Shown: piece after piece, positions 2,099 to 60,130 of the stretch | How the letters are laid out: every line of letters begins with the position of its first letter | Position numbering within the stretch: the first letter of the stretch is position 1 | Assembly (NCBI GenBank): GCA_951406725.2 | Contig: OX597831.1 | Coordinates: forward strand, 51,584,001-51,648,000 | Direction of reading: 5' to 3' | Source: Octopus vulgaris | Lineage: Eukaryota | Length of the DNA stretch: 64,000 nt | The notes under the pieces: generated by a model | Told to the model about the DNA's origin: nothing | Database searches by the model: none | Seen by the model: the letters and a program-made list of their open reading frames with translations, nothing else | Translations under genes and position numbers: made by a program

Positions 2099-2424
2099 TC
2101 AATGGGAGGCACACTGAACTCGGGATTGACCCATGTGATCATCATCATCATCATCATAAGCTTCAGTGCGTTGAGACCTATAACGTTGTTCTTTTGGATT
2201 AAATTCTGACAGAACACATGCTTCTGCACTAACTGGAATGTTCACAGGTCTACGTTCAGGCAGCAGTTTTTCAAGTTCTACCAATTTGTCTGAGGGAATA
2301 AAATTTGATGGTGGGAATTTGACAGTAAATTTTATGATCAAAACTCCTTTTTCAAATGGGTCACGATATATAGGCATACCCTCACCAACAACACACTTGA
2401 TATCTCCATGCTTGACAACCTCAC
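2099..2424 (-). CDS. DNAJA1: DnaJ class A, last coding exon with CaaX prenylation motif
   Basis: GEVVKHGDIKCVVGEGMPIYR...VQCASH*; five exons total 1209 nt = 402 aa + stop. Confidence 0.95.
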
Positions 2425-3071
2425 CTGAAAATAAAGTATTTCTATTTAAAACATGTAATTTAAATTTTTATTGTAATCAAACAAATTAGAAAAAAAAAAA
2501 AAAAACTCACAAGAAATAGCATTTAAGCCTTAATAATTTTGAAGTATATTTCTACAACTGAATTTTTAAGATAGCAAACAAGTATGAAATAGAGACTAAA
2601 ATCAGTGTGACCACAAAGGAAAGTTATGTGTATCCCTCAAGGAATGTAACAATTGTTGCAGCAAGGCTTGAACTCCAAGCTATGAAATTCTAATTCAGTA
2701 ACTTGGAGCTTTAATCTAATAAATCTTTCATTTATTCTCTAATGCAAGGATTTGTACTTTATTGCATCAATGTTGGGTTAGCATAATTGATATAGCAGTT
2801 AAATCATATTGCCTGGGAAATTTATTCCAAAATATTAAAACTAAAATAGCAGTATATTAAAAAGCCTCGCCCAAACAATGCTTTGAGAAGCTACTATGTA
2901 CAATGCAAATACACAGCAGCATCTCAAAAGTCATTGCAGTGAATGAAGTAGATTTATTTTAAAAGCCCTTCAGAGTTAAATCAGGGAGGAGTCAACCAAT
3001 TATGGAGGCTAATTTGAATAAATGTTGATGTACAGAATGCTGGTTAAATATAAATGAAAACATAAACTTAC

Positions 3072-3302
3072 CGGGTAAACTAGTTGCAACTAAAATACGA
3101 TCATCTAAAGTGGGAATAGTTTTCTGAAACCCACATAAGGCTTCTGTAAGGGTCAGTGAAATTGGCATTTCAAGATCAGCTCCACTACGACGGAAAAGTT
3201 CATCCTCTTGTTCATCCAAAACTATGATAACATCTCCTGCTTCCATTTTTGGAAATTGATCACCATCACCAGCAAATCGAAATGTCTGACCATCTTTCAT
3301 AC
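3072..3302 (-). CDS. DNAJA1: DnaJ class A, coding exon 4 (C-terminal substrate-binding domain)
   Basis: GMKDGQTFRFAGDGDQ...LTEALCGF; AAG acceptor, GTAAGT donor; 231 nt. Confidence 0.95.
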
Positions 3303-3764
3303 CTTTAAAATACAAATTTTAAAAATATTGAAACCAACTTCTAAAAGCTTAATCTATAACAAAAAAAAAAAAAAAAAAAGCATCCACAAGACTGAAATTA
3401 TTTTTTTTATATATATATATATATATATAATAAAGAGGTTGCAAAACCAGTTATAAACATTTGATTGCTTAACAGGCCAAAATACTTTCAGGAAAAGCTT
3501 TGTATAAGGGACAAAGTAAAAGTAAACTGCAACTATGATGCCAAAATAGAACAGTTGATTTGACGAAAAAAAAAACAACTGATTTCAAACATTCCAAATA
3601 CAATTTTAATAAAGTTATCTTCTCAAATTCTTCATTATTTTCATAATCGAAACAAGTGGAAACTAATACTTCTACTAACTCTTGATACAAGCCTGCCAGT
3701 AGATGCCTGAAAAATATTTTGGTTAAAGTTATCAAACTACCCATAACCTGCCTGAAATTATCTC

Positions 3765-6270
3765 CATTTAACGTTCGTTTTCCCATGCTGGCATGGGTTG
3801 GATGGTTTGACAGGAGCTGACCAACTTATGGTTCCATGTCTTTTGGCATAGTATCTACAGCTGGAAGCCCTTCCTAACGCTGACCACTTTACAGAGTGTA
3901 CTGGGTGCTTTTATGCAGCACCGGCACCTACGAGCCTGCGAGATTAAGGATGCTCAATTGGAGAGGGTTGCAGGGGATGAGTCTGTATGCAAGGACAACC
4001 ATACTTTTACTTAGCTTGATGTGTCTTTTCAAGCACAGCAAACCGCCAGGAGTCCTGGGTCCCTGTCATCCTTTTTGTGAGTTTCAGCATCTGTAAATCC
4101 TTTCTCACCACTTCATCTCACGCCTTCCTGGGTCTACCCCTTCCACACGTTCCCTCTACAGTTAGAGGTTGGCACATCTTGATGCAACTATCTTCATCCC
4201 TATGCTTATGTCCATATCAGTGCAGTCTTCTCTCTCATACACATCTGATGCTACGTATACCTAGTTTTTCTCTCAAATTAGTACACTGTCATATATGCAC
4301 ACAGACTTTGTTTCTTTTAAGTCTTTGCATATCCTCAGTAGTCACAGCCCATATAGCACAGTTGTTCATACACAGGCATTGTACAATCAGCCTTTCAAAC
4401 TGAGGGAGAGGCACTTTGTTACTAACAAGGTAGTAGCTCCCTGAATTTTGTCCAGCCTATTCTTATTCTAGTAGCTATACTTTCGGAACAACCACCCCAA
4501 CTACTAACTTGGTCACCTAAGTAATGAAAATTGTCTATTATTTCTAAGGAAACCCCTTGACATATGAGGGAGTCTATTTCTTGTACATTCCTGGTGTTTA
4601 ATGTACCGGCTCATCTGCCATATGTAAACATTGATATTGCTGCACCTCATGTGTCCATAGCTTGCACTGGCTACACCTTATGTAGAAATGGTGTCAGGAG
4701 AAACTCCATATCGAGCAGGGCCATCTCCCTCAAGGGATCTGCAATTTGTTTTCCTACTTATCAATGCTGTGGGCTTTGTTAAATTAACTCTAAAGCCCTT
4801 TGATTCCATACTTGAAATTTCTTCTCTAGTTCTGGTGGTGATTTAGCAATAAGAACAAGGTCATCAGCATAGAGAAGCTCCCAAGGGCAGCCAGACTTAA
4901 ATTCCTGTTATAGCTTGGAGGACCATGATAAATAAGAGGGGTTCAAACCCAGGTGGACTCCTTTTACATTAAACTCCCTGCTATACTCATTGGCAACTAA
5001 CAGCATCCCTATACATGGCTTGTACAGCTCTCACTAACCACTCACCTATCCCTAGCTTCTGCATTGACCACCAGATAAGGGAGTGGGGACCCTGTCAAAG
5101 GCTTTCTCCAAAAGCCAGGAATAGAGGTTGATTTTTAGCCAAGTATTTTTTCCTGCGATTGCCTCACCAGGAAGATAGCATAAGTGGTGCCTCTTCTTGG
5201 CACAAATTCAAAATGCATCTCATCTAAGCTAATTCTCTTCCTAACTAATTGAGCTATGGCCCTTTCTGCAACTCATCACCTGGTCCAGTAATTTGATACC
5301 TCTGTAATTATTTGTCTAGAGCATCACCTTTGTCTTTGAAGCAGTTGACTAATGCTGCTACACCAATCATTGGGTATGATTCCCTTGTTGACAATCTGAT
5401 TAACTAAATGGCTGACCAGGTCATATCCCACTCTGCCTGAGATTTTAAGCATCCCAGCAGTGATTCCTGATGGGCTGGAGACTTTCCCTATCTTTATATC
5501 CTTAATTGCTTGCTTTATCTACTAAGCTACTGTCAATCCGAATAGCTGGCCCCTCTGTTAGGTCAACATTTGGCAGGCTCTCATTCTCTGTATTTAGCAG
5601 CCTTCCATAGTGGCACTTCTAAACCACCTCCTCTGCAGAGTCACTAACTGCAAGTGAGCCATCATCCATGAGAACATGTATTTCTTACCACATCATGATT
5701 TTCTCTGACACACTGACTCGCAATCCGAAACCCTTCAAGCCTCTGGTCCTCACAATGCAGAACATTGACAAACTTCCTCCTTTCTGCTTCTCCCCTGGCT
5801 AAATATAACTGTCTTCTAATCTTTCTCCTAGCTACCAGATATAGTTCTGTTACCACCACTCTTCCAGGCCTGTTTCTTTGCTCTAATGGCCTTGTCTATA
5901 GCACTGTTCCATCACCACATCACTCTAGGTCTGGTTGGGACTTTGCACTAGCTGCAGATTTGGTCTGTGACACTCAGCAAGCTGTCCCTCAGGAATTCCC
6001 AGTTGCCCTGTTACAAGTCTGTAGGTCAATTAGGGTGCCCCTAAATCTCTGACTATACAAAGGATCCTTAAGCTACCAAATCCTTTTCTAGATAGGTTTG
6101 CATGTTGGTATCCTTCTAGCCTGAAGCCTAAAGTCACTAATGACTAGTCTATACATTTTTGGGTGGGGGTGGGGGGAGGGACATTCTTCACAAGGGGAGG
6201 TCTTTGTATTTATGAGCAACCATGTATCTTGCTGTCTGGTGAGAATGTAATCAATCTGGCTAATCCAATA
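3765..6270 (-). mobile_element. Degenerate RTE-clade LINE in a DNAJA intron
   Basis: Minus-strand translation gives CPWELLYADDLVL (~4860-4890), RIGWTKFRELL (~4435-4465) and endonuclease-like QIDYIL (~6245-6260); frameshifted; 3' tail shared with many short copies. Confidence 0.85.
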
Positions 6271-7646
6271 ATTTGCACAATTCTTCTATCATAAAATTTT
6301 GTTGTATACTCATTGAACATTTGGTTAATAACTCATTTTCTATGCTGATGTTTAAATAAATTTAATTTTATATTTAGTTGTATTTACCTGTAATTAGATT
6401 GGCTTTGAGACAAAAATTATGAAATAGATTTGGTTAAGAACCTTTTTTAAACTGTAATCCACAAAACAATGTTGATAAAAAAAGAAAAAAAAAAGAGTTC
6501 TATGAAATCAGTCTAAATTCACGATCATTTTAGAATTTGGAACATATAACAAGTGTATTTTGGTTAGCAATTTAGTAACAAAGAGGGTTAATACACCTAA
6601 GTCTATCAAATGGACAACCAGAAATGAGAAACAATCACAATACAATCTCTTTGGATTACTGAAATTACTTTATGAGGATCAGAATGTTAATTTAATATAT
6701 CACTACACCAATGAGAATGGGGGGTAAATTATAGCACACCTTCCAACAGTCGTGGCATAAATTGTGTTCCCCAAATTTTTTTACCCATCCTCTCACCTTA
6801 TATCGCTACAATCTTATCAGCTTGATTTGAAGGAACTTTAAAAAGTAACAGCAAATATGAACAAAACAGGAATAGCAAGATGTAGTTTAAATACGGTTTC
6901 AGTACGCAACAATAAAAACTGAAAGCAATAAATTGAAAGAGAATAGACTGGAAACTTCCCAAATACTCCAAGCACCCCCCCCTCAACCCACCTTGGTCTT
7001 TCTCATTACTCAAAAACCAAGTGACTTTTCTTTGTCATTCCAGCAAGGGGAGACTAACTGCTAGACAATATCAAAAAGGAAAAATGAGGAACTGAAGGTT
7101 CATATACCTGGATGAAGTTCAAGCATTTTTTGAATATAAATATAATTAACTATTAATTTTTAAAAATTGCCTGTAATTTTAACTTGGGTGACAAACTGAC
7201 TAATGATATCAGTGAATTACTGTAAGGTCTGAGTTAATATAATTTTATCTTCAAACATTGATGTATTTCGTGTAACTTTACTAATACATGTACACATTTT
7301 ATATAAATAAGTTTACAAGTTCAATTAACAATCCAATAATGTGCACAATTTTTCTGAAGTCCTAGCCTCATTTATTTACCCTAGCTGAATATTGGCCAAT
7401 TAATTTCATGTGATATTTATAGAAAATTTTGACTTTTAAAACTTAATTGAAAGAGGTATTCCGGTTAGAAATATGATGAAAAGAATTGTATTCACAGGAA
7501 ATTTCTGAAACTTGTCATGAACACAGATTTATTCCGATCCCCAAAAAGGAATGTTTTAACCAAAACAACCACATCAATTTTGCATTGTAATCATAAAGAA
7601 TAAATAAATAAAAAATGAGCAGCAGAATCTCAAGCAACCAGCTTAC

Positions 7647-7874
7647 CTTTATCAATATGAACTTCTAATATCTTTTTAGATTGATAAGTCTTTTTCCCCA
7701 TGCAGGTTTTGCAGCGAAGTTTAGGATTGATTGTTTCCTTTTTGCCACCACATTCAGAACACACGGTTTGCATTTGTTGTACCATACCCGGACCAAGCCG
7801 GGTGATAGATACTTGGACACCTGTGCCATTACATTCTTGACATGTCATTACTGCACCTTCTTTGCCACCTCGCC
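7647..7874 (-). CDS. DNAJA1: DnaJ class A, coding exon 3 (zinc-finger region)
   Basis: [34 protein letters not shown]; TAG acceptor, GTAAGC donor; 228 nt, phase 1 to 1. Confidence 0.95.
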
Positions 7875-9033
7875 CTAGAAAAGAACCATTTTGCAATGTA
7901 ATACCACAAAAAGAAAAAAAAAAGCATGTAGATAGTTTGTCTAGTGGCATGGGAAACAATCTAAGAAATGGATTTTTTTTTTAGTGAAAGGAAAAAAAGA
8001 TTTTGATCAGACAATGAGCATTTCACTTTAAAGAAATACGAACCTCAAAACAATGCATGCAGTATTTTACAGGACAATGTCTATGAACAGAACAATTCCT
8101 AGAAGAAAATTGAGAGAAAGAAACGGCATCAATAAAGCCAGTTTCATAGTAACCAGGTATCAATAATACCAGAAGGAATGACGCACTTTGAAGTACTGGT
8201 GTTACATAAACAGAAATTGAAAGAAAAATTTAAGGGTGGTTAACCAAGTGGAATTTAAAATTTGTTTGGCAGAGTGTTTCTTTTTAAAAACCCATTTTTG
8301 AAATAGTTCATGTAATTTTGGCACCACCTCATTTTAGCTTAACATGCTTGAAGTGTGATGTAGCATTTATTGGGATTTATGTTTGTAGAACTAATTACAA
8401 GTTAAATACATATACGAAGCATACTTCCTTCCAAGAGTGTATGTACTGAAGCACTTGAAATTTTTTAATACACACAGGTTTTAATACTTACATCCATCCT
8501 ACCTATTGAGTAAGCATTTGTAATTTAGATAATCCAGACTAATTTATTTTTAAGAATACAAGGCTTCTCAACCATACACTGTTTAGTCATGAGTGACCAG
8601 CTCTATGATAAAACAACATTCCATCTACAAAATGATGCTCGTCTTTTTGCAAATCGGAGATTATAATATTCAACACACAACTTTTAAAAAGACTGTAGTG
8701 TTGGGGGGTTTTTTTTCGCGTGGTTATTTCTAGCTAAGAGACTATATAGAAGCTTCACAAGTTGGCTAGATGTAATTTCAAATGGTTTAATATGAAATCT
8801 AGACACAATGGAAATCCAAACCAGAATTTAAATGCACTTCATATCGTTATTCTACTGAAATGAAAGGAAGTGGAGATGAAAATCTTGTGAAAGTTTCATC
8901 TATTCTGATTAAGTCATGAAATACATAAGACTTCAAATTATTTCTTTGCTAATAATGGTTAAAAATATTTAGCAATTCAAAGAAATTTAATTGACACAGA
9001 TATAATCATTTTACAATAAATTTGAATTATTAA

Positions 9034-9242
9034 CCCCTTTTGTAACCATATTTATGTTGAAATATACTACCCCTGTCTCAACTTTGAAAATGAAGAATTT
9101 ATTAACTTTGTTATTATTAAGCTGGTATCTGGAATGCAAATCAACATGAAATTTTGATGGAGGTTTTTAATTTAGGCCATTTTAAAACTGAATTTGCATC
9201 ATAGAACCAGGGGTAGTTTCAAGCAGGATGGTATCAAAAGGG
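9034..9242. mobile_element. piggyBac-like MITE
   Basis: TTAA-CCCCTTT...AAAAGGG-TTAA; internal similarity to 1259-1469. Confidence 0.7.
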
Positions 9243-9938
9243 TTAAGGAAGATAAGTGTTTTTAGCAATTTTAATTTTCAACAATGGCCATTTTCAATTT
9301 ACAGTCTCCACTGCCACTACCCTTATCACTAACCTAGGCATGTTTAATGATGAACATCACATCTGTACTTGATCTTACCACATTCACTGCCTTTCCTTCA
9401 AGTTGCTTGTTATTGACATCTGCTACCCTTTCTTACCAGCAAAAAATGTACTTTCCATCACTGCCTCTCTCCCATTATATTATTTCTCTTTTCACTCTAA
9501 TTTATCTTATTACCTACCCTCTGAGTTCTGCTTTGAAGGATATGAGACAGCATTGAATAATGAGAGCTAGCCTGGCTGGTACAAGGCAACCACATTAGTG
9601 TTAATGCCATAAAATATATAAAGTTGTATCTAAGCATAGAAACCATTCCAAAAATGGAATGGTAGGAAAAAGACAGCTCTCCAATCTGTCTATGATGGCA
9701 GTAGCTCACGAAGCATGACACAAAATACAGATGTAAAATGATGTTAAAATATTTCACCTTTTTCAAATAGGAGAGAAACATTTTAGTTTTATTATATAAA
9801 GTAAATATTTAAATGGAGTCAAAAGCCAGTGTCAGTTAGCAATAGTTTTAGTAATATTTTACTGTCAAACATGATAAACAGGAGTAAAATTAAAAAAGTA
9901 AATTTAAAGGATAAGACAAATGAAAAAATATAACTTAC

Positions 9939-10230
9939 CATCACATTTATCACATATTATATCTCTAGTGATAGATAACTTTCTTGTTGCTCCATTGTAT
10001 AACTCTTTCAAAGTAACTTTTAGCTGATGTACAATGTCTTTAACTTTAGATGGCGTACTACGTCTACCATGTCCTCCAAAAAACATATCAAAAATGTCCA
10101 TAGCAGAATGGAACTCAAATCCACTACCCCCTGCCCCACCCCCTTTAATTGCTTCTTCTCCACCTTGATCATAGATTTCTCTTTTCTTGGGTTCACTTAG
10201 TACTTCATAGGCTTGACTGATTAATTTGAA
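9939..10230 (-). CDS. DNAJA1: DnaJ class A, coding exon 2 (J-domain end, G/F region, first CxxC)
   Basis: [12 protein letters not shown]...DIFDMFFGG...ICDKCD; CAG acceptor, GTAAGT donor; 292 nt, phase 0 to 1. Confidence 0.95.
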
Positions 10231-11159
10231 CTGAAAAAGAAATATTTCCAAAGTGTAACTTCAAAACTTGAAATTAATTCTGAGAATATTTTTAAAATCT
10301 CATAAGATATGCTATAAAAATAGCTTCCTCAAGTTTTAATTAGGTGATATTACTGGTTTTAAAAATATCAAGATAATCCAATGCTCTCCTCCATACCCAA
10401 CTGAAAGGAAACCTCACTCATCTGGCCAAATCTCTGAATTAGATTTCAGAACTGTCTAACCTTGATTTCTCTATACAGGAGTTGAAACAGTGAAAAATAT
10501 ATACATAACGACAAATTCAATAAGCATAAAGAAGTACAAAATTACAATTATTAAATCTGTGCAGTTTTCATGAACTAAGATTAAATATCAAAACTTTTAT
10601 ACATCTTTAAACAATTTATTCAAAAGATGACAAACTTTTGAATGAAAAATAAGTGCTAGAAAATTTTTTAATAGAAATTATCTACATGGGGCAATTATTT
10701 TAAAAGAAATATTGCAAATGCTAAATTTGAAATATTTTAACCAATGCAAGTTTTTTTTTTATTCTCAGAAGCAAGACTTAACTCCAAACTTAGGGATTTG
10801 AATATGATCTTTTAAGTGTATAAAAGTTTGGTAAGATATAAGTCACTTTGTGCTGATATATTGATATATAATAAAGAAAAAAAACTACAGCAGCAACATG
10901 CAATAATTGAATGGTTGAAAGCATAGACATGAGTCCAACATAAACTGATTGTTATTTGCTGTACCAGCTGCCAGTACAAGAGAATTAAAATTTGAAAATA
11001 AAACGTTTACTCATCAACTTTTACATTGAGTACCTTTGAATATTATTATTGGGTTACTTTCAAAACAATATTTTAATCAACCAACGTAAATTGGATTTTC
11101 AAGAATTAGAGACAATGAATTTCAATCTTAGAAAAACAAAATGCAAGAATTCTACTTAC

Positions 11160-14992: not shown

Positions 14993-15982
14993 TTTATACA
15001 TACATACATACAATATATGAGTGAGCATTGTTTAGGCTGAAGCATCTTTTGCAAAATCAACTCGGTAGATTTAATTAAAGTACATATATATACATATGAA
15101 TCGTAATCACGAAAAGGAAGAAAAAAATTAACCTATTTTAATAGAAATAAGACAAAAATAACAAATCAGGAACGGTTGGTTACTTTCATTTCTAACCCTT
15201 AGTTTAATATTTCACTCCCCGATGGAAAAAAACCAAATCTGATGCATTAAATAAATTTTTTTGTGTATATGTGTGTATCTTTGGTGAAATATTAATTAAT
15301 AATTAAATATCAATTACCGTTTTTTGTTTCCTTATTCTTCTTGGTAACAAGTTCAACAAGTCGTTGTTTGGACGTGAAGGAAAAAAACGCAGCCACTAAG
15401 TATGATATAGTATAGTAGGTGCTTTACACCTCTATATATATATATGTGTATATATATATATAAATGCTGATAATAAGTCTTGTATGCTTTACGTTGCTCA
15501 CCGACTGCGAATTATCTTGAGAAGTACAGATGATTCTAGAAAAGGTTAGAAATGTGACGTAAGTGACCACGTGATTTGCCACGTTTGATGGCTGTAAAAA
15601 CTGGAACGGGATCGAACGAAATGCTTACTTTTCGCTTACATACGCGGAAAGAAAAAAAAATAAGCGAAATAAAAATTAAAATGTATACTTTTTTTAAAAA
15701 TCTTTTGTCTTTTTTTTGTTTGTTTCTGTCATTGGACTGCGGCCCCTGCTGGGGGAATCGCTTTGAAGGGAAGGGTTTTAGTTTGAACAAATCGACCCCC
15801 CATTGCTTACTAAGCACTACTGTCGGTCTTATGTTTTTTTTTTTTTGGTGAAATGGTAAGTTGCAGACATGTAAACAAACCCACACCGGTTGTCAAGTGG
15901 TGGTTGACAAACAACACAGACACACATACACGCACTCAGTGGATCATATATATCCGAAAAAGAAGCACATTCTAAAAGTTAG

Positions 15983-16017
<35 letters not shown>

Positions 16018-25051: not shown

Positions 25052-26323
25052 TTAAAAAAATGCTATAGTAAGTCTTATTTCCAAGGACAACCTGCACTAA
25101 CCCTATCAACTATTAACCTAAATACTTACTTTCAGCATCATAAATATGATGGAAATAATGAATAACAACACCCATATCAATATCATGAGTCTCTTTTCTT
25201 CCCAAATGATCATCAGTATTGCTTTCAAAAAGACCCAATGATGACCCACTCTCCTGTTTCACATACCAGTAAACTCTTTTCCTTGAGAAATTTAGGAAAA
25301 GCAGTGTTGTTACTCTTGACCATGTTCAGCATGCAAATCTTGTAGAAAAATTGCTTGCCTATGAGCTAGCTGTATTTGTCTCTCATCTTTTGGATTGTAC
25401 TAGCGTGGCATGTATTAATTGAGCACTCTCTGATCCCACACTCTCAGCTACAGTGTTCACAAGGGTTTGGTTGTGTTCCATAACACTCTTTCACCTATAT
25501 GTCAACAACCTACTTGGCACCATCGCTAATAATACTCACTCCTATATAGCTAATGCCCTTCACTTCTACAGCAAAGAATTGTCTATGTGCAGTATAAATA
25601 TCTCAAACAAAATTTGCATTGGGTCTCTTAACAGATGCCTTGAAAACATGCCCAAATGGAATCATACCAGTTTTGTTTTTATCATTATCAAAAAGTGACA
25701 ATCACTGCACATGCCAAGAAAATTTTGTTGGTCCCACCCTTTATGAGAGCATGTAACTAGAATCGTTAAAATTGTTTCAAATGTTAGGGCTCACCTTCTC
25801 TCCTGGTGAATATGCTTAACATAACGATGACTTTCTTCTCCAGGGTCAGAAAATAAATACTTCATTTTCCAGGAATTGCATATCCTCTATGTGAGTGCAG
25901 TACTCATGATTGAATACTGCACCCCTATTTGGGTTAGTGCTATTATTACCCAAGCAGATATTCAAGAATGGACCCACATAATAAAGACCACTTGAATGAT
26001 AAACATGAAGTTGCTCACCAATGCACACAAATCCCTAGCTCATAAATATGTCTGACTATGAGGAATTGAAACCTTGATTGGAACTAGTTGGGAGGTGGCA
26101 ACAGGAAGAGCATCTGATCGTAGAAAATCCCCAGCAAATTCTGTCTGGTCCATGCAAGCCCTGGTTAAAATGTTAAAATGATGATGATGATAGTATACAT
26201 ACACTGACTTCCCCCACTCTCATATATATATGTATGTATGCATGTATGTATACGGCTCGCTTGTTAATAGGTTCAGGATATTTAGATACTTAATACATTT
26301 GAGTTATAAATAAATATTATATA

Positions 26324-26440
26324 TACAGCCATATCACGTTGAAAGCACCGGTTCTAGTCCGGTCGCCGAAGTTCAGCAACGTTGAGCCTAGTTAGTACTT
26401 AGATGGGTGACCGCTTGGGAAACCTAGGTGCAGTAAGCAT
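26324..26440 (+). rRNA. Solitary 5S rRNA copy, probably a pseudogene
   Basis: TACAGCCATATCACGTTGAAAGCACCGGTTCT...GTTAGTACTTAGATGGGTGACCGCTTGGGAA..GGTGCAGTAAGC follows metazoan 5S along its length; first 3 nt of helix I missing; T-run terminator at ~26447. Confidence 0.85.
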
Positions 26441-29119: not shown

Positions 29120-29454
29120 TGTGTGTGTCTGTGTTTGTCCCCCTAGCATTGCTTGACAACCGATGCTGGTGTGTTTATGTCCCCGTTACTTAGCGGTTCG
29201 GCAAAAGAGGCCGATAGAATAAGTACTGGGCTTACAAAAGAATAAGTACCGGGGTCGAGTTGCTCGATTAAAGGTGGTGCTCCAGCATGGCCGCAGTCAA
29301 ATGACTGAAACAAGTAAAAGAGAAAGATATATAAATATAAAAATTTATAAAAATAAATTAATAATTTTTAACTTTAACTTTAAATATTTTTATTTCTATG
29401 TTTTGGTTTATGTTTTTCACTGTTTGATTTGCCTAATAGTGATTTTATCTCTAA

Positions 29455-29496
<42 letters not shown>

Positions 29497-38371: not shown

Positions 38372-38658
38372 TCAAATTGCCGGACACTGTTTGCAAGGAG
38401 AGGTGTTGATGTGTTTCATCATACCGAGGAAATCATTACAGCTTCTGAAACTATACACATTATCTGTAGAACTATCAGATGCAATATCAGTTATTTTAAT
38501 CTTTTTGTTGGTAATCTGATCCCTCTTGATAATTGTTATTACAGACACATGTGCAACAGAGCGCAGTTTCCATGCCTCTCTGTAGTATGAAGAACGACAT
38601 GTTGATCGGCCATCTGTTATTAGAAGCACATCATATTTAATGCGTGTTTTGGATCCAT
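38372..38658 (-). CDS. Secreted VWA-like protein, last coding exon
   Basis: DGSKTRIKYDVLLITDGRS...CKQCPAI*; LLITDG is the hallmark VWA beta4 motif; total 1029 nt = 342 aa; AATAAA on minus at 38291-38296. Confidence 0.8.
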
Positions 38659-38914
38659 CTGCAAAGAAATAATGAAAATATTAAAAATCAAAAAAAATTA
38701 TAAAAATGTAAATAAAAAGATAATAACACAGACACAGGAATGGCAGTGTGATTTAGAATCTCTCTTTACAACCATATGTTTTTGGATTCAGTCCCACAAA
38801 TGCCTTGTATTATAGCTTGACCAATGTCTTGTGAGTGAATTTGGTAGTTAGAAACTGTATAGTTTATATATATATATATCATAGTTTATACACACACACA
38901 CACATATATATATA

Positions 38915-39270
38915 TAGGGTAAAAGGATAAAGACCCCCTTTGGTCATGAATGTCCATGGGATTGCACCTAGAAATTTCCCCTCTAAAGCACAAGTCTGGG
39001 TACGGTTGTTTTGTTTATGGAAGACCAGCAGTTGGCCATGTATACCAGCCTCTCCTATCCATGCCACTAATATTGTTCAAGGAAAAGGCAAAGGCAGATG
39101 CAGCTTAGCACCAGTGACATCGAAACTCATTTCCACAGCTGCTTGAACTGGAGCAATGTGAAATAAAGTGTCTTGCTCAAGAACACAACATACAACCTGG
39201 TCTAGGAATTCAACTCACTACCTCATGATTGTGAGCCCAATTCTCTGACCACTAAGTCATGCACCTTCAC
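38915..39270 (-). mobile_element. tRNA-derived SINE family C
   Basis: tRNA head followed by GTGTTCTTGAGCAAGACACTTTATTTC core; other copies at 18970-19760 and 61090-61255. Confidence 0.75.
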
Positions 39271-39460
39271 TTATATACATATATATATATATTCGCCATG
39301 ACAGATTGCTAGCCACTCTATTTTCTATTTTCTGTTTTCTTTCCCTGTTTATTTCTGTGTTCCTTTCTGTCAAAGAGTGTAAGCTCAAAGCATAAAAGAC
39401 TTTCTCACTTCCCGAGCATCAAACTAATACATCTGTTTGCAGTTTTCTTTTGTAAGTTCT

Positions 39461-39529
<69 letters not shown>

Positions 39530-39533
<4 letters not shown>

Positions 39534-39930
39534 ATGAGGGAATATTATTCTAAACTTACAGGGAAAAATTCAATTTAGAAATACTAAATCAAATTTCACA
39601 AAATATAATATATATATATAAATTAGAAAAAAACCACCTTTTACCAATTCAATAATGAAAAATTAAATTATACCATTTAGAAAAATTACATATTATAGAA
39701 AGATTAAATATAAGATAAAACATATAACAATGATTAAGTAATGTGCAAAAAAGTAAATAAAATATATATGTTTTATTTACTTTTTTGCACATTACTTAAT
39801 CATTGTTATATGTTTTATCTTATATTTAATCTTTCTATAATATATAATTTTTCTAAATGTTATAATTTAATTTTTCATTATTGAATTGGTAAAAGGTGGG
39901 TTTTTTTCTAATTTATATATATATATATAT
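39530..39930. repeat. AT-rich (TA)n-embedded element with a ~150-bp-arm near-perfect palindrome
   Basis: Arms ~39612-39762 and 39771-39922; same family inverted at 59665-59880 and related at 53640-53705. Confidence 0.85.
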
Positions 39931-39984
39931 ATATATTGGTCAGTAGTTCAAATATCTGAAAAAGAAGCACACCTCTGGCCATTT

Positions 39985-40044
39985 GAGTCTGACGAGTTGC
40001 CTATACAGTTAAGTGCTTTATAGGTGTGAAACCAATGGTCACTC
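39985..40044 (+). ncRNA. Type I hammerhead ribozyme, canonical core
   Basis: GAGT-CTGACGA-(GCCTATA..TATAGGT stem II)-GAAA-CC aat GG-TC-ACTC; GUC cleavage triplet at 40038-40040. Confidence 0.8.
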
Positions 40045-40405
40045 TCTGACTAGCCATAACAATCAACCTTCTAAATATATGTATATATACAAGTGTGTGT
40101 GTGTATGTGTGTATTTATGACCTCAAGCCACCGCTTGAAAACTGATGTTGGTTTGTTTACATATTTGTAACTTAGCAGTTTGGTGAAAGAGACCAATAGA
40201 ATAAGTACCAGACTTTAAAAAAAGTATTGGAGTTGAACTGTTTGTCAGAAAAAATTGTTTAAAAAAACCCTCCAAAAACTTCAAGGCAACATAACCTCAG
40301 TCCAGTGACTGAACACACAAAAGATAAAGATACCTTGAAATGGTTGCAATAGTTTTTAGAAAATATTGGCAAACTTCTTATGAAGCCACGTAAGTAAGAA
40401 CTGAC

Positions 40406-40682
40406 CTGTGTACTTATCAATGTGAGTATATGCTTTCTTCAACAGAGAAGTTACACAACTGACTCCATCATGTCCATTCAGCTTATGGATGGCTTCTTTA
40501 AGTTGTTCAATGCTTTTTGTTTCTGAGTGATATTGCTTCACATTGTCATTGTTCGTGATCAGCGTTAAAGAATGGACATCAACAGTATGGTCAATTGTAC
40601 GGGTGCTGCTTTTTGGCAGACACATATTGTCGACCATTAAATTAAGACTCTCTTTAATGTGAGATATTTCATCTGGAGACAT
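40406..40682 (-). CDS. Secreted VWA-like protein, coding exon 3
   Basis: MSPDEISHIKESLNLMVD...LKEAIHKL...SLLKKAY; CAG acceptor, GTCAGT donor; 277 nt, phase 0 to 1. Confidence 0.8.
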
Positions 40683-41009
40683 CTGCAAGATCATTAAATG
40701 TATAAATCAAAATTTAAAAAATAATAAATCTTTTTATCATATTTAATGTAAATACATTAGTCAAAGGCAAGTTACAGTTTGTATTCATCCAGAGATAATA
40801 TCTCTTATGAATGTACTCTATTTGAAAACACAGTATATGTGGTTTCAGGCATGGCTATGTAGTAATAAGTTTGTTTCCCAACCACATGATCCTGGGTTCA
40901 GTCCCACTGTGTGAAACCTGGGAAGGTGTCTACTACTGTAGCTACTATGGCAGTAGGCTGACCAAAGTCTCATAAGAGGATTTGTAAGATGGAAATTGAA
41001 AGAAGCCCA

Positions 41010-41129
<120 letters not shown>

Positions 41130-42040
41130 AATCATCTTTCAAGCATTGGGCCTCATGAAGGCAATGTGGCTGATGCCAGTGTCACGTAACTAGCATCTGC
41201 GCCGGTGGTACGTAAAAAGCACCTTTTGAGCACTGGGCCTCACAGAGGCGATGGCAAATGATTGAGACAATATACTGTGCTTGAGAAGAAGAGTCATCAA
41301 GCCAAGTGAAATTATAGTTGTGGCAGATACTGGTGTCAGCAACTGACATCCATGTCAGTGGTATGTAAAAGCATCCATCCACTCTCAGAGTGGTTGGCAT
41401 TAGGAAGGGCATCCAACTGTAGAAGCCATGCCAAATCAGACTGGAGTCTGGTGCAGTCCTTCAGCAACAGTCCAGCCCATGCCAGCATGGACAAAGGATG
41501 CTAAATGATGATGATCATGATATCTATATATAGATATATATGTGTGTGTGTGTGTATCTTTATGTTTGTGTATGTCTTTATGTTGGACACACACATACAC
41601 ACACACACACACACACACATACATGATGGGTTTCTTTCAGTTTCTGTTAACCAAAGACTTTGGTTGGCCCAGGGTTACATGCCGAAGGTGCCATGCAGTG
41701 GGACTGAACCTGGAACTATGTGGTTGGTTGGGAATCAAACTTCTTACCACACTGCCATGCCTGTGTCTGTATGTCTGTTCATTAATTTGCATGATTGACA
41801 GCTGAAAGAAACAGATTTTAAGATGATAGTGTAGTTTGTGAGTATTGTTATTATGTCAAGGTATCCACTGATGTTTGAACACATAGCTGCAAGATAGTGC
41901 CTCATTTTACCCCCATATATGTACTACTATTTCAATGTTAATTTATTTACATTGCTGTGTGCATCTGTATGTGTGTTCGTGTTTGTATGTGGATGTGCAA
42001 ATATGCATGTGTAGTGTGTGTGTGTGTGCATGTATGTATG

Positions 42041-42088
<48 letters not shown>

Positions 42089-42783
42089 CATATATACATA
42101 TATACATATACCTACGTACATAAAAATATGTGTGTGTGTGTGTATGACAGAGTGAGAGAGCGAGAGAGAGAAAGAGAGAAACAGGGAAAGAGTGTGAGAG
42201 AGAGAGAGAGAGCGAGAGAGAGAGAAAGAGTGAGAGAGAGAGAGAGAGAGAGGAGATTTTAAATGGTTTCTAGTCTTTAGGACTTTGTGACTTGATAAAA
42301 ATAATGTTGATACTCTAGTTAGTTACAAAGGCATCCCTATAAAAAGACGATCTGATAACACAGATGTGGGTTGCCTTACATTTGTTCTATTTAAAGCTCT
42401 ACCCTTTCCCTCATCATTTAGAACTACATTTCTGCGATCCTTATTTTCTCCTCTATGTTCATAGGATTCGTATGGTTAGTTTTTAAACTGTCATTATTAA
42501 GGCATTGGTATGGCTCTGAGGTTATGAAGCTCAAAATGTAACTATGTGGTTTTGGATTTGGCTGTGATACCTTGAGCGAGTGTCTACTACTATAGCCCTA
42601 GGCCAACAAATGCCATGTGAGTGAATTTGGTAGACCAAAACTATATGGAAGCCCACCAGGCTTCCATATAGTGTGCGTGTGTGTGTGTGTGTGTGTGTAA
42701 TGTCCAACCCATGCCAGCATGGAAAACAGACGTTAAATGATGATGTTGATGATGATGGTAAATGTATATTTATATAATAAACG

Positions 42784-42814
<31 letters not shown>

Positions 42815-42953
42815 TATGGAGATGTACTTGGATAGCAAGTGACCTGATCTGAGATCGTGTGCTGGGATGAAAACAATTGCAGTGTGGCAGATGTTTATAA
42901 GCCATTTAAGAAACACACAAAAACCGTTAGATTCACTTCAACATTTAAATTTA

Positions 42954-43007
42954 TTTTGTCAAAATATTTTCGTCGCTTTTGAGACCATGACCTGTTCACT
43001 GACAAAA
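42954..43007 (-). ncRNA. Minimal hammerhead motif, G3-C8 variant
   Basis: minus: TTTTGTCA-GTGAACA-gGTC..GAC-GAAA-ATAT-TT-TGACAAAA; perfect 8-bp stem I. Confidence 0.6.
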
Positions 43008-43072
43008 CTGTGTGCTGCATCTCTAACGGTTTTTGTGTGTTTCTTAAATGGCTTATAAACACCTTCCACGCC

Positions 43073-43154
<82 letters not shown>

Positions 43155-43456
43155 ATGTATATGTGTATGTATACACATACATGTGCATAAACACACACAC
43201 ACTCTCATATAACACATACACAGATGTCTTTGTTCTTGAACACCACCACCACCACCACTTGACAACCGGTGTTGGTTTGTCAGTGTTCCCATAACTCAGC
43301 AGTTCATCAAGAGACCAAAGAAATGAATATCAGACTTTAAAAAAAAAATGTAGTATTGGGGTTGATTTGTTTGACTAACCTCCTCAGGGCAGTGCCCCAG
43401 AATGGCTGCAGGCCAATTTTTGAAGCAAGTTCAAAATTAAAAGAAAACTTTCTTAC

Positions 43457-43587
43457 CTGTGAAGAAAGGTCAAGAAGAAGCAATTTATTCCTTTTGCCTT
43501 CTTGATTATTATTACCAAAACTGGCAAAGTTCTTCAGGAATCGGTCTTCAAATCGGCAAGACATTTCTTTGAATGCTTTTGCAAAAT
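43457..43587 (-). CDS. Secreted VWA-like protein, coding exon 2
   Basis: DFAKAFKEMSCRF...KLLLLDLSSQ (VWA beta1 plus DxSxS-like motif); TAG acceptor, GTAAGA donor; 131 nt, phase 1 to 0. Confidence 0.8.
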
Positions 43588-43888
43588 CTATCATAAAAAA
43601 TAAAGATATGAAATTTCACAAGAAGTATAGATTTTACTGTGAAAATATTAAGTATGGTAATCCTTTACTACTTTAATAAAATTTTTTACACTAAATATAA
43701 AAATAAATTATAAACACAGGGACAGGCATGGTCATGTGGTTAAGAAGCTAGCTTTGCAACCAAGTGGTTTCAGGTTCCATCCTACCATGCAGCATCTTGG
43801 GCAAGTGTCTCTGCTATAGTCACAGACTGATGAATGCCTTTTGTTTGAATTTGGTTGATGGAAGTGTAGAAGCCAGTGGTGTGTGTGT

Positions 43889-44118
43889 ATACAGGGTGTG
43901 GTGAATATATTGTTGTCTAAATTACGCAAAAAGGAAAATAACACTGATATCTCATTTTAACAGATATATTTTCCAAAATTACAGGAAAATATCTTGAAAT
44001 ACTAAAAGGAAAATTTATTCAACAAAATGACCATTGGCTTCAACCACAGCCTCCAGACAACTTCAGAATCTCCTGCAACTCTTCAGGACAGTCTCCTTGT
44101 TTAAGTTGGTGAATCCTA
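43889..44118 (-). mobile_element. Tc1-like transposon 3' fragment
   Basis: TA-CAGGGTG terminus; minus translation SCRRF*SCLEAVVEANGHF resembles a Tc1 transposase C-terminus. Confidence 0.6.
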
Positions 44119-44979
44119 CCACAATCCTTATCTTCAGCTCATCTTATCCACTGCTTGTGGACATAGTGTAGTGAACAAGAGCATTTGGTTAATGCAGAGC
44201 AATCACCTAAAGATTCTGAGTTCAATCTCAAGCAAGGGACTAAAGTGAATCACAAAATACCTGAAGAAGGCTGGTGTGTACAACAACTGAAAGATAGTGA
44301 ACACAAAAATCATGATGATGACACCAGTCTGACTATGTAAACAGGGTACATAATATAAAATTCCTCATCTCAGAAATATAGAATTGTATGTGCAATTACT
44401 ATGTCTTAGTCCATCGATTTATGTTTATTTGGTCAAGTTCTGAGATCGAATTAAGTGACAAGGATGTATTGGCGACATTGTTAGAGTTTTAAATGATAAA
44501 ATGCCTGTGATATTTCATAATGGCCCTTTATGTTCTGAGTTTAATTCCTGCCAAGGTCAATTTCGACTTTTTACCATTCCTTGGTCCATGAAATAAAGTT
44601 TCTGGTAAGTACTCAGTTTAGTTTATGAGGAGAAGTGAAGGGAGATGTCAGGACCGGAAGCAAAGGAGGAAGAGTGACATCAGGACTGGAAGTAACATCA
44701 GGTCAAGAAGCAGGGTATTTGAACATCCTCTTTCTTCATTAGGACATCGAAGGGAACAAACAGCTGGAAGAGATCTTGATGGGAGAGTAGTTTCTGGCTA
44801 GAGGTTGGGTTGCGTACATGTGTAGGTATGACCAGTGAGTCCTGCTGATCCTTGTGAAGTGAAGACGGGTACTAACTCCTGGTTTTATTTCAAGGTAAGA
44901 ACAATCTTATATCTGCTTTTCCTTCTACAGTTTAATACTTTAAGATATTCTATATGTCAATGGAATTTTGATAGAATGA

Positions 44980-45189
44980 GAAGAAGGCAGCAAGGAGGAA
45001 GAAGAGGAGGAGGAGAAGTAGGATGATAGTAATTGTAATAATAAGACAGAGGAGAAGAAGGTGAGAAGAAGAAGAAGAAGAAGAAAAAGAAGAAGAAGAA
45101 GAAGAAGAAGAAGACGAAGAAGAAGGTGAGAAGAAGAAGAAGACGAAGAAGAAGAAGAAGAAGAAGAAGAAGAAGAAGAAGAAGAAGAA

Positions 45190-45236
<47 letters not shown>

Positions 45237-45342
45237 CGAAAAAGAAGGTGAGAAGAAGAAGACGAAGAGGAAGGTGAGAAGAAGAAGAAGGTGAGAAGAA
45301 GAAGAAGAAGAAGAAGAAGAAGAAGAAGAAGAAGAAGAAGGA
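44980..45342 (+). repeat. Long imperfect (GAA)n microsatellite
   Basis: About 300 nt of GAA with recurring GGTGAGAA interruptions; intronic. Confidence 0.95.
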
Positions 45343-46329
45343 AACAACAACAATGATGACAATTATACCCATTCCCCTAATTTGAAGTGTCAGATATAAA
45401 ACTAGATTGATAAAAAGTGTAACTCTTTTGCCCAAACTGACCCATTTCTGGTATCATAGAAAAATGATATCAGAAAGGTAAAAATAAAAGAAAAGTCATC
45501 ATTTTAAGTAAGATAGAAAGAATGATGTAGAATGACGATGATGTATACAGGACTGTATTATTTGGACAATATGTTTTCTTCTTTTTTTTAAGACAATAAA
45601 TTGTGATTTGAGGGTGATTTGGTTGTTATTTCTAGCTGATTGACCACATAGAAGTTCCCTTGTTGGCTTTAGGATTAAATTTGTTGGTGGGAAATGGAAT
45701 GAATGTCACTGAACTTGTTTGACCTCTGCCCATTCCTGCTGAAGTTGAAAGGGTTAATACTCTATTGCAGTACATACTTCTGCTAATGAAAGGTAAATTA
45801 ATTCTAATTAACACATCTGTGATCATCATCATCATCATCATCTTCATTTAACATCCACTTTTCTATGCTTGTATGGGTCAGACAGAATTTGTCGAGACAG
45901 ATTTTCGACAACTGGTTGCCATTCCAGTTGTCAGGTGTCATCACCTGTTTTCAGGTAAGGCAATATTTTCCCATGGCCAAACACGTTTTTCGCAGAAGAC
46001 TGGAAACGAACAACATTGGTTGCATGATGGCAATGTTTGTTTATGACCACTATGTCAAGACAAGGGTATGCACAAACATACACATATGCACACACACACA
46101 CATGCACACACACACACATGCACACACACACACATGCACACACGTACACACAGACATGCACACACAAACAAACACACACACATGTATACACATACTCACA
46201 TGCATACACACACTCATATACACACACAAACACATGCATACATATGCACATGCATACACACACTCACATGGATACTTGCACACAAATACACTCATATGCT
46301 TACACACATGCACACACACATGAACACAT

Positions 46330-46552
46330 GAAGGCGATGAGCTGGCAGAAACGTTAGCACGCCGGGCGAAATGCTTAGCGGTATTTCATCTGCTGTTATG
46401 TTCTGAGTTCAAATTCCGCTAAGGTCGACCTTGCCTTTCATCCTTTCAGGGTCGATAAATTTAGTACCAGTTATGCACTGGATGTAATCGACTTAATCCA
46501 TTTGTCTGTCCTTGTATGTCCCCTCTATGTTTAGCTCCTTGTGGGCAATAAA
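46330..46552 (+). mobile_element. tRNA-derived SINE family B
   Basis: GAGCTGGCAGAAACGTTAGCAC..GAGTTCAAATTCC..GCCTTTCATCCTTTC core; copies at 32805-33175 (tandem), 36710-36910, 60600-60821 and 61633-61853. Confidence 0.85.
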
Positions 46553-46716
46553 AAAATAACACACACATGAACACACACACATGCATATATACACTCACCG
46601 GCACACACACACATGCATACACACGCACATGGATACCCACATTCATTCGCACACACATTCATTTAATCACAACTGTACCTTAGATATAAATAAATAAAAT
46701 AATTAATGATCTAAAT

Positions 46717-46971
46717 CAGTGCTTCTCAACGATTTTTTACCTTTTGACCCCTTTAATTCCCATTTTACTCAGATGGATCCTCTTAGCCATTCAATGTTTT
46801 AAAAAATCCTATTATATTTTTATAACTAAATATTATTTGGATATGTATAAAAAAATTGCCAAAATAATTTGTGTATTATAGAAATATAAGCAATTTATAG
46901 CACATAAATTTTAACACCAAAATCTTATATGGAACCCCAAGTGCCATATGGAACCTGGTTGAGAACCACTG
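46717..46971. mobile_element. hAT MITE
   Basis: CAGTGCTTCTCAAC / GTTGAGAACCACTG TIRs; TSD ATCTAAAT/ATATAAAT; partial copy from 18699. Confidence 0.7.
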
Positions 46972-47049
46972 ATATAAATAAATGTCAGCTGATTGATTGA
47001 TAGATTGATTAATTGATTGATAGATTGATTGATTGATTTTTCTGTTTAC

Positions 47050-47383
47050 CTTCAAAAAAGTTATGTCCATGATATTGAGGCTCATAAGACTTGTGTTGAG
47101 CTGCATGTTCAGGCTGCTTCCATAATCTAAAATAGCCCCACTCACCATTTAAAGAGAAATCTCCAAAGAATGAACCCTGTCGTGGATAACTGGGATATTG
47201 CCGGAAAGATTTCTGACGTGCAACCATTGGAGAGTAAGAGTTATTTCTGCCACCATAATTCCACAAACCATTGTCATTCCAGCCATCATATTGGGGGTCT
47301 TGATTGCCATAGCCGAAATAATCTTCACCAACAGATAGCGTGTGTGAGATGAGTGCTATTGTAATAATTCCTAGAGTCCACAT
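47050..47383 (-). CDS. Secreted VWA-like protein, coding exon 1 (signal peptide + G/Y/W/N-rich region)
   Basis: MWTLGIITIALISHTLSVG hydrophobic leader; TTCCAG acceptor at 47398, GTAAAC donor; 334 nt, ends phase 1. Confidence 0.8.
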
Positions 47384-47767
47384 TATGTTAGAATTATCTG
47401 GAACAAAAAGAATATATATATATTCAGTAAATTGTATTACATACATATGAGAGGGATGACCACTATGTGGACAACCCTTATGCTAGAAGTAGATCCGCAT
47501 ATCTTACCACTAAGAAATGTTCTCAAGAAAATTTAGCAAACACCAGAACGTAAGCGAGCAAGACAAAAGAAAAGTAACAAAAATATAGATTAATCTATGG
47601 TAAGACCATAGCGGATCTACTTCTAGCATGAGGGTTGTCCACATAATGGTCATCTCTCTCATATGTACGTAATACAATTTACTGAACCTTCAGATTTGAA
47701 TATGCTAGACCACTGGTTTTAAATTGATGTTAATCTAATTAATATCCAGTTTTTCACCCTCATTTAA

Positions 47768-47802
<35 letters not shown>

Positions 47803-47828
47803 AAAGTTAAATGCGATACAATAAAATT

Positions 47829-47883
<55 letters not shown>

Positions 47884-48059
47884 TTATACATATATATATA
47901 TATATGTATGTATGTATAATACACACACACACACACAATAAAATAGTAAAAGTAAATGTAGATTGAATGTGTTGTTTACTTCCACAAAATACAGATCAAC
48001 AAGGAACTGAGAGACCAGTTGGAATTTGATGTATTGGCAAGTGTGGGAGAGTTATGTGG

Positions 48060-52433: not shown

Positions 52434-53706
52434 TAAATTAGAGTAACATAATTTATATTAGATAATTTTCCCATTCATAATTTTGTTTATAGTATTTATA
52501 GTATTTTTTAATACTATATTACTAAGTAAGGAATATTCCTATAAGTATGTGGCTGAGTATCTGTGGCTACTGGATGTTGTTTCTCCTCTGTGTTAGTGTA
52601 TTGCAGTGTGCATACGTTTATGTATGAGTGATTGTATGTGTGTGTGTGCGAGTATGCATAATTAATGTGTAGAAATATAGGGTTGCATTTAAAACATATC
52701 CGTGTCTATATGTATTTGTGTATGTATAGATATATATGTGTGTGTGTGTTTGTTTACGTATTTATATATGTTTATTACATACATATAGTATATAGTATTT
52801 AATACTATTTTAATAAGAATGAAATATTTCTATAAGTATGTGGTTGAGTATCTGCGGCTACTGGATGTTATTTCTCCTCTGTGTTAGTGTATTGCTGAGA
52901 GTATATGTTTATGAATGAGTGATTGTATGTGTGTGTGTGTGAGTATGCATAAGTAATGTGTAGAAGTATAGGGCTGCATTATAAATATATCTGTGTCTAT
53001 ATGTATATGTGTATGTATAGATATATATATGTATGTGTGGGTTTGTGTACGTATTTAGATATGTTTATATACATACATGTATATATGTGCATGAGCATGT
53101 GTATATATATTTTTTGTTTTTTGAAATTAGCTATTTCATCTTTAAATATGAGAAATTAAATATATTAGGTTTTCATTATATACAATTGTTTATAGAGTTT
53201 ATTTTAGATCTTGATTATAATATTTATATATATTTTCATTGATAATTTATATATATTAGTCATTTCAAATATCTATATAAGTAGATATAGACTAAAATGG
53301 ATATTAGAATATGGATTTCTACCTTATAAATTAAAGTTAATATTTAACATTATAGTCGATTTCGATATAATCATATTTAATAATACAGTTTATTATAAGT
53401 AAATTTTTATTTAGATTATATAGATTATTTATATCTTAAAAATATTGATTATATTTTAGGTTTTGAAACCACCTGAAGAATGTCTCAAAGATGTGCTGAC
53501 ACGAAACGGTCGTAGTGGTTATTTATAATTGTTAAATTTTAATTTATATAAATTATTATATGTATTGGCTTAAGTCTTTCTTTGTTTGATTTGCATAATA
53601 GTGGTTTTGTCTCTAATTTAATATAATATAATATTTTACTATAAAATTGGATTCAATCCTAAATCTGATTTTTCCCTGTAAATTTGGATTTATTCCCTAA
53701 TATATT

Positions 53707-53710
<4 letters not shown>
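52430..53710 (+). mobile_element. Putative Penelope-like element terminal (pseudo-LTR) region
   Basis: Bounded by (TA)n; ~300-bp internal direct duplication (~52495-52790 and 52790-53060); contains a hammerhead at 53467 and a terminus related to 39530 and 59800. Penelope origin is inferred; no RT seen. Confidence 0.55.
53467..53520 (+). ncRNA. Minimal type I hammerhead ribozyme, canonical core
   Basis: AACCAC-CTGAAGA-aTGTC..GACAc-GAAA-CGGTCG-TA-GTGGTT; perfect 6-bp stem I; GUA triplet. Confidence 0.75.
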
Positions 53711-53756
<46 letters not shown>

Positions 53757-59681: not shown

Positions 59682-59767
59682 ACCGTTTATCAATTCAAAA
59701 TGAACAATCAAATTACACCTAGAAAATTAATTGTTCATTTTGAATTGATAAAAGGTGTTTCTTTCTA

Positions 59768-59807
<40 letters not shown>

Positions 59808-60130
59808 TTGTGAAATTTGATTTAGTATTTCTAAATTGAATTTTTCCCTGTAAGTTAGGAATAATATTCCCTCAAATAATTATTATTATATATATATATA
59901 CCCATTACTATTGTGTGTGTGTGTATATATATATATATATCTTTGATTTGCTCTTTTATATTATTAGTCACACTATTATTCTCTATCTTTTTCATTACTC
60001 AATCTATTAACTAAAAGACATTTATAATTTATTTTCTTTTGGGCATCACTCTGGCTTAGCTGCAGTAAATAATGCCTCCATTATTCATGTTATTATGTAT
60101 AAATACCTTCCAGCATTCTCAATCAGTTAA

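Follow-up and report, generated by a model that had tools for sequence, protein, structure and literature searches.

The 64-kb stretch of Octopus vulgaris DNA analyzed here (the window) carries on its minus strand the 3′ part of a gene for a VWA-domain protein, and one intron of this gene (38659-40405, GT...AG) contains, on the plus strand, a hammerhead ribozyme motif lying within a multicopy repeat. The intron separates a VWA-like exon (40406-40682) from the coding part of the following exon (38372-38658). On the minus strand, 40682-40406 and 38658-38372 join in frame, with a single, terminal stop codon. Run X8 (whose RNA label was guessed) supplied a contig of 1,846 nt that aligned to 40406-40685 only, the alignment ending at the splice donor of the exon; the 862 letters left over would reach 37797, 15 nt downstream of an ATTAAA. 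The exon join, the end of the alignment at the donor, and this remaining length make it very likely that 38659-40405 is the last intron of the gene, 40406-40682 its penultimate exon and 38372-38658 the coding part of its last one. The VWA identity of the penultimate exon was indicated by a weak match to Pfam VWA_2 (E=0.049) and by an Atlas feature match of 0.91 to VWA clusters, and a simple scan of 40700-48000 found no upstream exon with a MIDAS motif (DxSxS). A preliminary description of this DNA had located the motif antisense in the last intron of the VWA gene; the placement was supported, its last-intron part by the argument just given. Since the hammerhead is on the strand opposite to the host gene, the host pre-mRNA carries only the complement of the hammerhead.

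Decayed repeats fill the rest of the intron. At 40100-40250 there is a fragment of a SINE-like repeat of very high copy, with a summed depth of up to approximately 36,000x single copy (run X2); the window contains at least nine more copies of it. Other features were also observed: a minus-strand ORF (47009-47482) that begins like a signal peptide, contains a stretch rich in Gly/Tyr/Asn/Trp, and had no Pfam match, possibly representing the VWA gene's first exon; the exons of a DnaJ (DNAJA-type) chaperone gene (2099-10260, minus strand), recognized by eye among the ORFs; and a lone 5S rRNA copy (26321-26439, plus strand; 87.9 bits) amid repeats, either a pseudogene or a 5S-derived repeat.

The plus strand at 39985-40044 reads as a full type I hammerhead core. 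All type I core bases are present (C3 U4 G5 A6 N7 G8 A9, G12 A13 A14, A15.1-U16.1, and H17; 39989-40040), in the segments CUGACGA (C3-A9; 39989-39995), GAAA (G12-A15.1; 40028-40031), and GUC (U16.1-C17), with the predicted cut after C17 at 40040. Three helices can form around this core. Helix I, which is open, pairs GAGU (39985-39988) with ACUC (40041-40044) in 4 bp. Helix III (40031-40039) has 3 bp (ACC/GGU) and an AAU loop, and forms a 9-nt near-palindrome with a central A. Helix II (39996-40027) has 2+7+3 bp: two wobbles at its base (G10.1.U11.1, the closing pair, where G-C is absent in this copy, and a U.G), a bulged U, 7 bp, a 1x1 mismatch, 3 bp, and a 5-nt loop. The seven central pairs had probabilities of 0.87-1.0 in free folding. 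The core, the 4-bp stem I and the 3-bp stem III with its 3-nt loop were thus as first described, and the assignment to type I was supported, whereas the stem II of about 7 bp with a large loop has to be replaced by the fold given above. The proposed extension of stem I (TGGC at 39976-39979 with GCCA at 40053-40056, spanning a 5x8 internal loop) was found in the minimum-energy fold, but it is optional and arose in 37% of 20,000 shuffles of the flanks (p=0.37). An ORF starting within the motif was discarded, as the frame opened by the ATG in helix III runs for four codons before closing.

In a structure-aware scan that required at least 4 bp in helix I, at least 2 bp at the base of helix II, and at least 3 bp in helix III, thresholds chosen after the motif had been seen, 39985-40044 was the single site in the window. 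Under the same thresholds, a hammerhead match was obtained in 2 of 200 block-wise dinucleotide-shuffled windows. Searching with a loose sequence pattern did not discriminate (16 matches versus 10.8 expected), and Rfam gave no hammerhead match at E≤1 across the window, nor at E≤10 on 141 bases. Metagenome matches to the letters of the core and helix III were rejected as chance, since all 28 were without a helix I of at least 4 bp, the best having 3. The motif is, as had been proposed, the best preserved in the window, given that the other one (53467-53520) is without G10.1. This second hammerhead, on the plus strand and unrelated to the first, is also of type I; it has a 6-bp helix I, a CUGAAGA segment, a palindromic helix III (ACG-GU-CGU), and a GUA site.

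The preliminary description had regarded the ribozyme as monomer-competent, with possible loop-loop contacts. Canonical monomer type I hammerheads are described as having a 6-bp helix I, a 4-bp helix II, and contacts between loops 1 and 2 (PMC4209133). The octopus motif combines a 4-bp helix I with a loop 2 that is separated from the core by 12 bp, and its TGGC/GCCA extension does not exceed chance. Helix III was computed at +0.4 kcal/mol as a hairpin versus -8.2 kcal/mol as a homoduplex, and a double-hammerhead fold beat two monomer folds by 9.0 kcal/mol. In free folding of 39972-40074, the pair probabilities of helices I and III were at most 0.03, and the active fold was 12.8 kcal/mol above the minimum, which is a relative figure, nearest-neighbour energies penalizing any hammerhead junction. 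The double hammerhead of this copy was 16 kcal/mol above the free dimer minimum and 1.7 kcal/mol above it with C at 11.1, a substitution by which the active fold gains 5.2 kcal/mol. The fold energies, the distance of loop 2, and the chance-level extension leave monomer competence unsupported. Because of the helix III homoduplex, the energy gained in the dimer fold, the distance of loop 2, and the absence of a partner in the window, the parent motif would be of dimer type and the copy at 39972-40074 inactive or nearly so. Luense et al. reportedly described in 2017 hammerheads with a short stem III that cleave as dimers.

The preliminary description overlooked that the motif is a member of a large dispersed repeat family. 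Contigs of 4 of 24 runs (X2, X8, X9, and X13) were aligned to 39930-40720 at 80% likeness, and in X2, X9, and X13 paralogous contigs aligned from 39970-39972 to 40074, the right end being uncertain (40075-40120 masked). The plus-strand module so delimited (39972-40074), which contains the hammerhead, is a multicopy repeat resembling the 5′-truncated end of a pLTR. Its summed depth over 39984-40064, relative to the single-copy level, was 206-397x in X2 and 250-695x in X9; summed contig depth is not true copy number, and X13 had no exon cover and therefore no single-copy baseline. The module thus belongs to a family of roughly hundreds of copies at a likeness of at least 80%. Over four bins, the depth in X2 was 85x, 206x, 397x, and 314x single-copy, climbing towards the 3′ part of the module as 5′ truncation would give. 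Regarding copy number and tandem arrangement, which had been singled out for checking, the module proved to be multicopy, but no head-to-tail repeat was found at the locus or in the window, where the best other match to it was 17/26.

On its left side the module is joined to an inverted piece of 34 bp (39938-39971, minus strand), which is a separate multicopy sequence. Beyond it lies a (TA)n tract (39914-39936) that is the likely target site, and a short, degenerate (TA)n tract (40075-40090) follows the module on the right. Both flanks of the insert are therefore TA repeats, and no target-site duplication is readable. The earlier placement between (TA)n tracts holds fully for the left side, the right tract being short and degenerate. 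The motif was also said to lie directly after a large palindrome (39627-39906); it begins 70 bp past it, the TA run and the unrelated 34-bp piece intervening. A contig of X8 covered 39942-40175 with 0 differences, and therefore the insert junctions are not an assembly error.

Fifteen of the 37 joints of the family were available for inspection. Among them, other contigs linked the 34-bp piece to the module at 39987, 39989, 40035, and 40037, while five contigs linked it to 40060 in the opposite orientation. Head-to-head joints of 39973-39979 with 40010, 40014, or 40029 accounted for four rows, of one contig each, and one of the 15 (one contig) led back inside the module; inversions and joints to the 34-bp piece predominated. 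A relic of this piece (15947-15984, minus strand), 19/20 identical to 39952-39971, is located between TA runs elsewhere in the window. Owing to the joint at 40060 and to a 5-nt overlap with the relic, 39938-39971 may be taken as the putative 3′ tail of the element, in the order module and then tail. On the minus strand this piece shows a polypyrimidine tract and CAG resembling a 3′ splice site, and the relic adds an upstream CTAAC motif similar to a branch point, a possible retained element intron. A polypyrimidine tract and CAG in the tail would fit the introns that Penelope-like elements (PLEs) retain.

The large palindrome itself was considered as part of the hammerhead element and discarded, since it matches a different family (53601-53720 and 59724-59897). 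Its arms (39627-39766 and 39767-39906, four mismatches) form a stump, arranged head to head, of another family that is AT-rich and has a further relative at 29357-29474. The left arm continues into a one-sided extension (39520-39600), a layout like that of the hammerhead stump at the same TA tract. The second hammerhead of the window (53467-53520) is situated directly upstream of sequence related to this palindrome family.

Variation within the hammerhead family was expressed as a percentage of family depth for 40 of 53 variants, in a table that holds no linkage between sites. The most changed sites included two essential ones: G8 (39994) was A in 27, 23, and 27% of family depth in X2, X9, and X13, and G12 (40028) was A in 21, 19, and 19%, respectively, while the other stem transitions among these 40 variants amounted to 2-11%. 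These results indicated that the repeat family is decaying. By comparison, in an alignment of 198 sequences of the conserved cricket satellite hammerhead, 2 changes at G8 and 1 at G12 are reported (PMC2837043). All core bases are intact in the copy at 39972-40074. The changes at G12 and at 40015 fit CpG decay; at G8, changed to A in about a quarter of the depth, the mirror CpG change (C7 to T; 39993-39994) was absent from the variants listed. The excess of G8A could reflect a G8A subfamily, an effect of filtering, or selection for dead ribozymes. Position 11.1 (40027) was C in 46-52% of family depth and is U in the present copy, as in about half of the family, and position 40009 was C in 80-85%, a majority from which this copy differs. 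C at both positions restores Watson-Crick pairs where the copy has wobbles, including the canonical G10.1-C11.1, a closing pair that is strongly though not invariably conserved in type I hammerheads. Since two Lottia motifs share G10.1.U11.1 (PMC4209133, supplement file 2) and half of the family has U, U11.1 need not be decay and may mark a subfamily. In X8, the family contig of greatest depth (132.7), with 13 differences, seems to have G at 11.1, which would break the pair.

Metazoan PLE hammerheads are described as combining a helix I of 4-5 bp with an elongated helix II and a helix III that is palindromic, and as cleaving poorly alone and somewhat as dimers, with thousands of such motifs in each genome (PMC4209133). 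Like the hammerheads with a small palindromic helix III in PLE pLTRs, exemplified by Penelope of D. virilis, the octopus motif is of type I, its helix I having 4 bp, its helix II being long and bulged, and its helix III being a palindrome suitable for dimer formation, and it occurs in mostly single, dispersed, and highly varied copies; it differs from those described in that helix II reaches up to 12 bp and helix III has 3 bp with a 3-nt loop (PMC4209133). With regard to the minimal PLE hammerhead, it shows the 4-5-bp helix I, a helix II longer than the canonical one (7-8 bp or more), and the palindromic 15.2-16.2 and loop 3. The extra base between A9 and G10.1 (CUGANGAH) is absent, G10.1 following directly after A9, and the motif was accordingly classed as working like the strict minimal consensus and not as a member of it.

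The insertion layout also pointed to PLEs. Endonuclease-positive PLEs show 5′-truncated copies, an adjacent inverted copy, and a tail of 30-40 bp that is often one-sided (PMC8557442, PMC3846280). The octopus insertions resemble them in the inverted piece of about 34 bp on one side only (its role as tail being the putative part), the variable 5′ truncation, the head-to-head joints, and the TA-rich target. A bias towards (TA)n targets is reported for Hydra, Naiad, and Neptune PLEs (PMC8557442). In the anole PLE, which also inserts at AT-rich targets, the tail corresponds to the sequence flanked by two internal start sites of the reverse transcriptase (RT) in AC-rich RNA, and the hammerhead needs protein and is dispensable for insertion (PMC11167929). 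The module shares an AC-rich 3′ end with PLE insertions (PMC11167929), 15 of its last 20 nt being A or C (75% A+C). It differs from these PLEs in the absence of a readable target-site duplication; full-length PLEs encode RT plus GIY-YIG in an ORF, and no such ORF was found within the 137-bp insert, and assignment to a clade (Hydra, Neptune, or Penelope/Poseidon) needs protein.

Based on the depth gradient, the head-to-head joints, and the constant left piece joined to varied truncation points, on TA flanks matching the (TA)n bias of Hydra, Naiad, and Neptune PLEs, on the agreement of all three helices (helix I with 4 bp, helix II long, helix III palindromic) with metazoan PLE hammerheads, and on the favoured dimer fold and the frequent changes at G8 and G12, we consider it highly probable that 39938-40074 is a solitary antisense stump of a Penelope-like element with a dimer-type hammerhead, a passenger without a role for the host. 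The 137-bp stump would derive from a PLE or from a non-autonomous derivative of one. The RT/endonuclease of the element would have nicked the (TA)n tract, and copying would have been limited to the final 100 nt or so of the pLTR, where the hammerhead lies, together with an inverted fragment of the 3′ tail. The parent element would have carried a type I hammerhead of the kind with a small palindromic helix III, two copies of which, in a tandem transcript, would swap strands to form a 9-nt intermolecular helix III and be cut after GUC, perhaps with the assistance of the element protein. The solitary copy would have no partner and a weakened helix II base, and the host pre-mRNA would contain its inactive complement.

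Closest to this reading would be a dispersed monomer of a non-LTR retrozyme, whose tandem units of 170-400 nt elsewhere would be transcribed, self-cleave, and circularize, the present copy being truncated offspring. Since retrozymes are described as derived from PLE pLTRs (10.64898/2026.07.22.740005), the two overlap. Molluscs do have retrozymes, and those of mussel, which are without the usual loop contacts, still cleave at about 0.1 per min (PMC7229834); solo monomers are common, about 43% of the Xenopus copies overlapping introns (10.64898/2026.07.22.740005). The octopus repeat resembles the retrozymes of mussel, coral, and amphibians in its type I hammerhead, its short non-coding sequence, and its intronic solo copy (PMC7229834, 10.64898/2026.07.22.740005), and contigs of the family occur in run X8. 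It differs from them in the absence of a tandem unit at the locus or in the window and in the decaying family core: no second copy lies in the 64 kb, one joint of the 15 of 37 re-enters the module (longer units being beyond the reach of the 791-bp stretch used for alignment), the contig of greatest depth in X8 is damaged, and a fifth to a quarter of the depth has lost G8 or G12. We regard a retrozyme monomer as rather unlikely. A bolder proposal, to which we give slightly less credit, is that intact tandem members of the family give rise by self-cleavage to circular RNAs in abundance, using a dimer-type hammerhead whose helix II is unusually long and which lies just upstream of the 3′ splice site (in the tail) of a retained element intron, and that host selection favours core-dead copies (G8A, G12A) elsewhere. 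If true, this would amount to a retrozyme/PLE circle of an octopus-like genome, absent from the literature searched.

Conserved intronic hammerheads of amniotes are sense, single-copy, and canonical. The octopus motif shares their intronic position and differs in being antisense, multicopy, and divergent. That it was exapted as a monomer-active ribozyme, cutting a transcript antisense to the VWA gene or tuning this gene in another way, is very unlikely. The core is intact, the 3-bp helix III exceeds the 1-2 bp described as typical of metazoan type I motifs (PMC4209133), and the contig over 39942-40175 shows 0 differences, but that contig carries no strand information and has a depth of 2.3 versus 20.3 for the exon, as expected of pre-mRNA or DNA. 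Moreover, fold energies and geometry oppose a monomer, the surrounding intron is full of decayed repeats, and at 40009 and 40027 this copy has exchanged Watson-Crick pairs for wobbles with respect to the majority and half of the family, respectively. A chance look-alike of a hammerhead in another repeat (a SINE or a MITE) is hardly credible, despite the lack of an Rfam match and a variant table without linkage, in which no compensatory double change is demonstrable; against it stand the low match rate in shuffled windows, the commonest variants at 40027 and 40009, which restore Watson-Crick pairs, and the second hammerhead within another TA-inserted inverted-repeat family of the same window.

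As a PLE stump, the motif is one worn copy of a many-copy element end that probably does nothing for the host gene. Thirty-one recently active Penelope-like families are reported in O. vulgaris, in a paper whose main text does not mention ribozymes (PMC13282606), and no hammerhead family of a cephalopod was described in the literature searched, although Repbase or supplements may hold one. One further copy matters little, given the thousands of known metazoan motifs. The hundreds of short, tailed, TA-targeted stumps, in turn, constitute junction data on the ends and inversion of PLE insertions, and the natural variants C11.1/U11.1 and G8/A8 provide material for tests of dimer-dependent cleavage.
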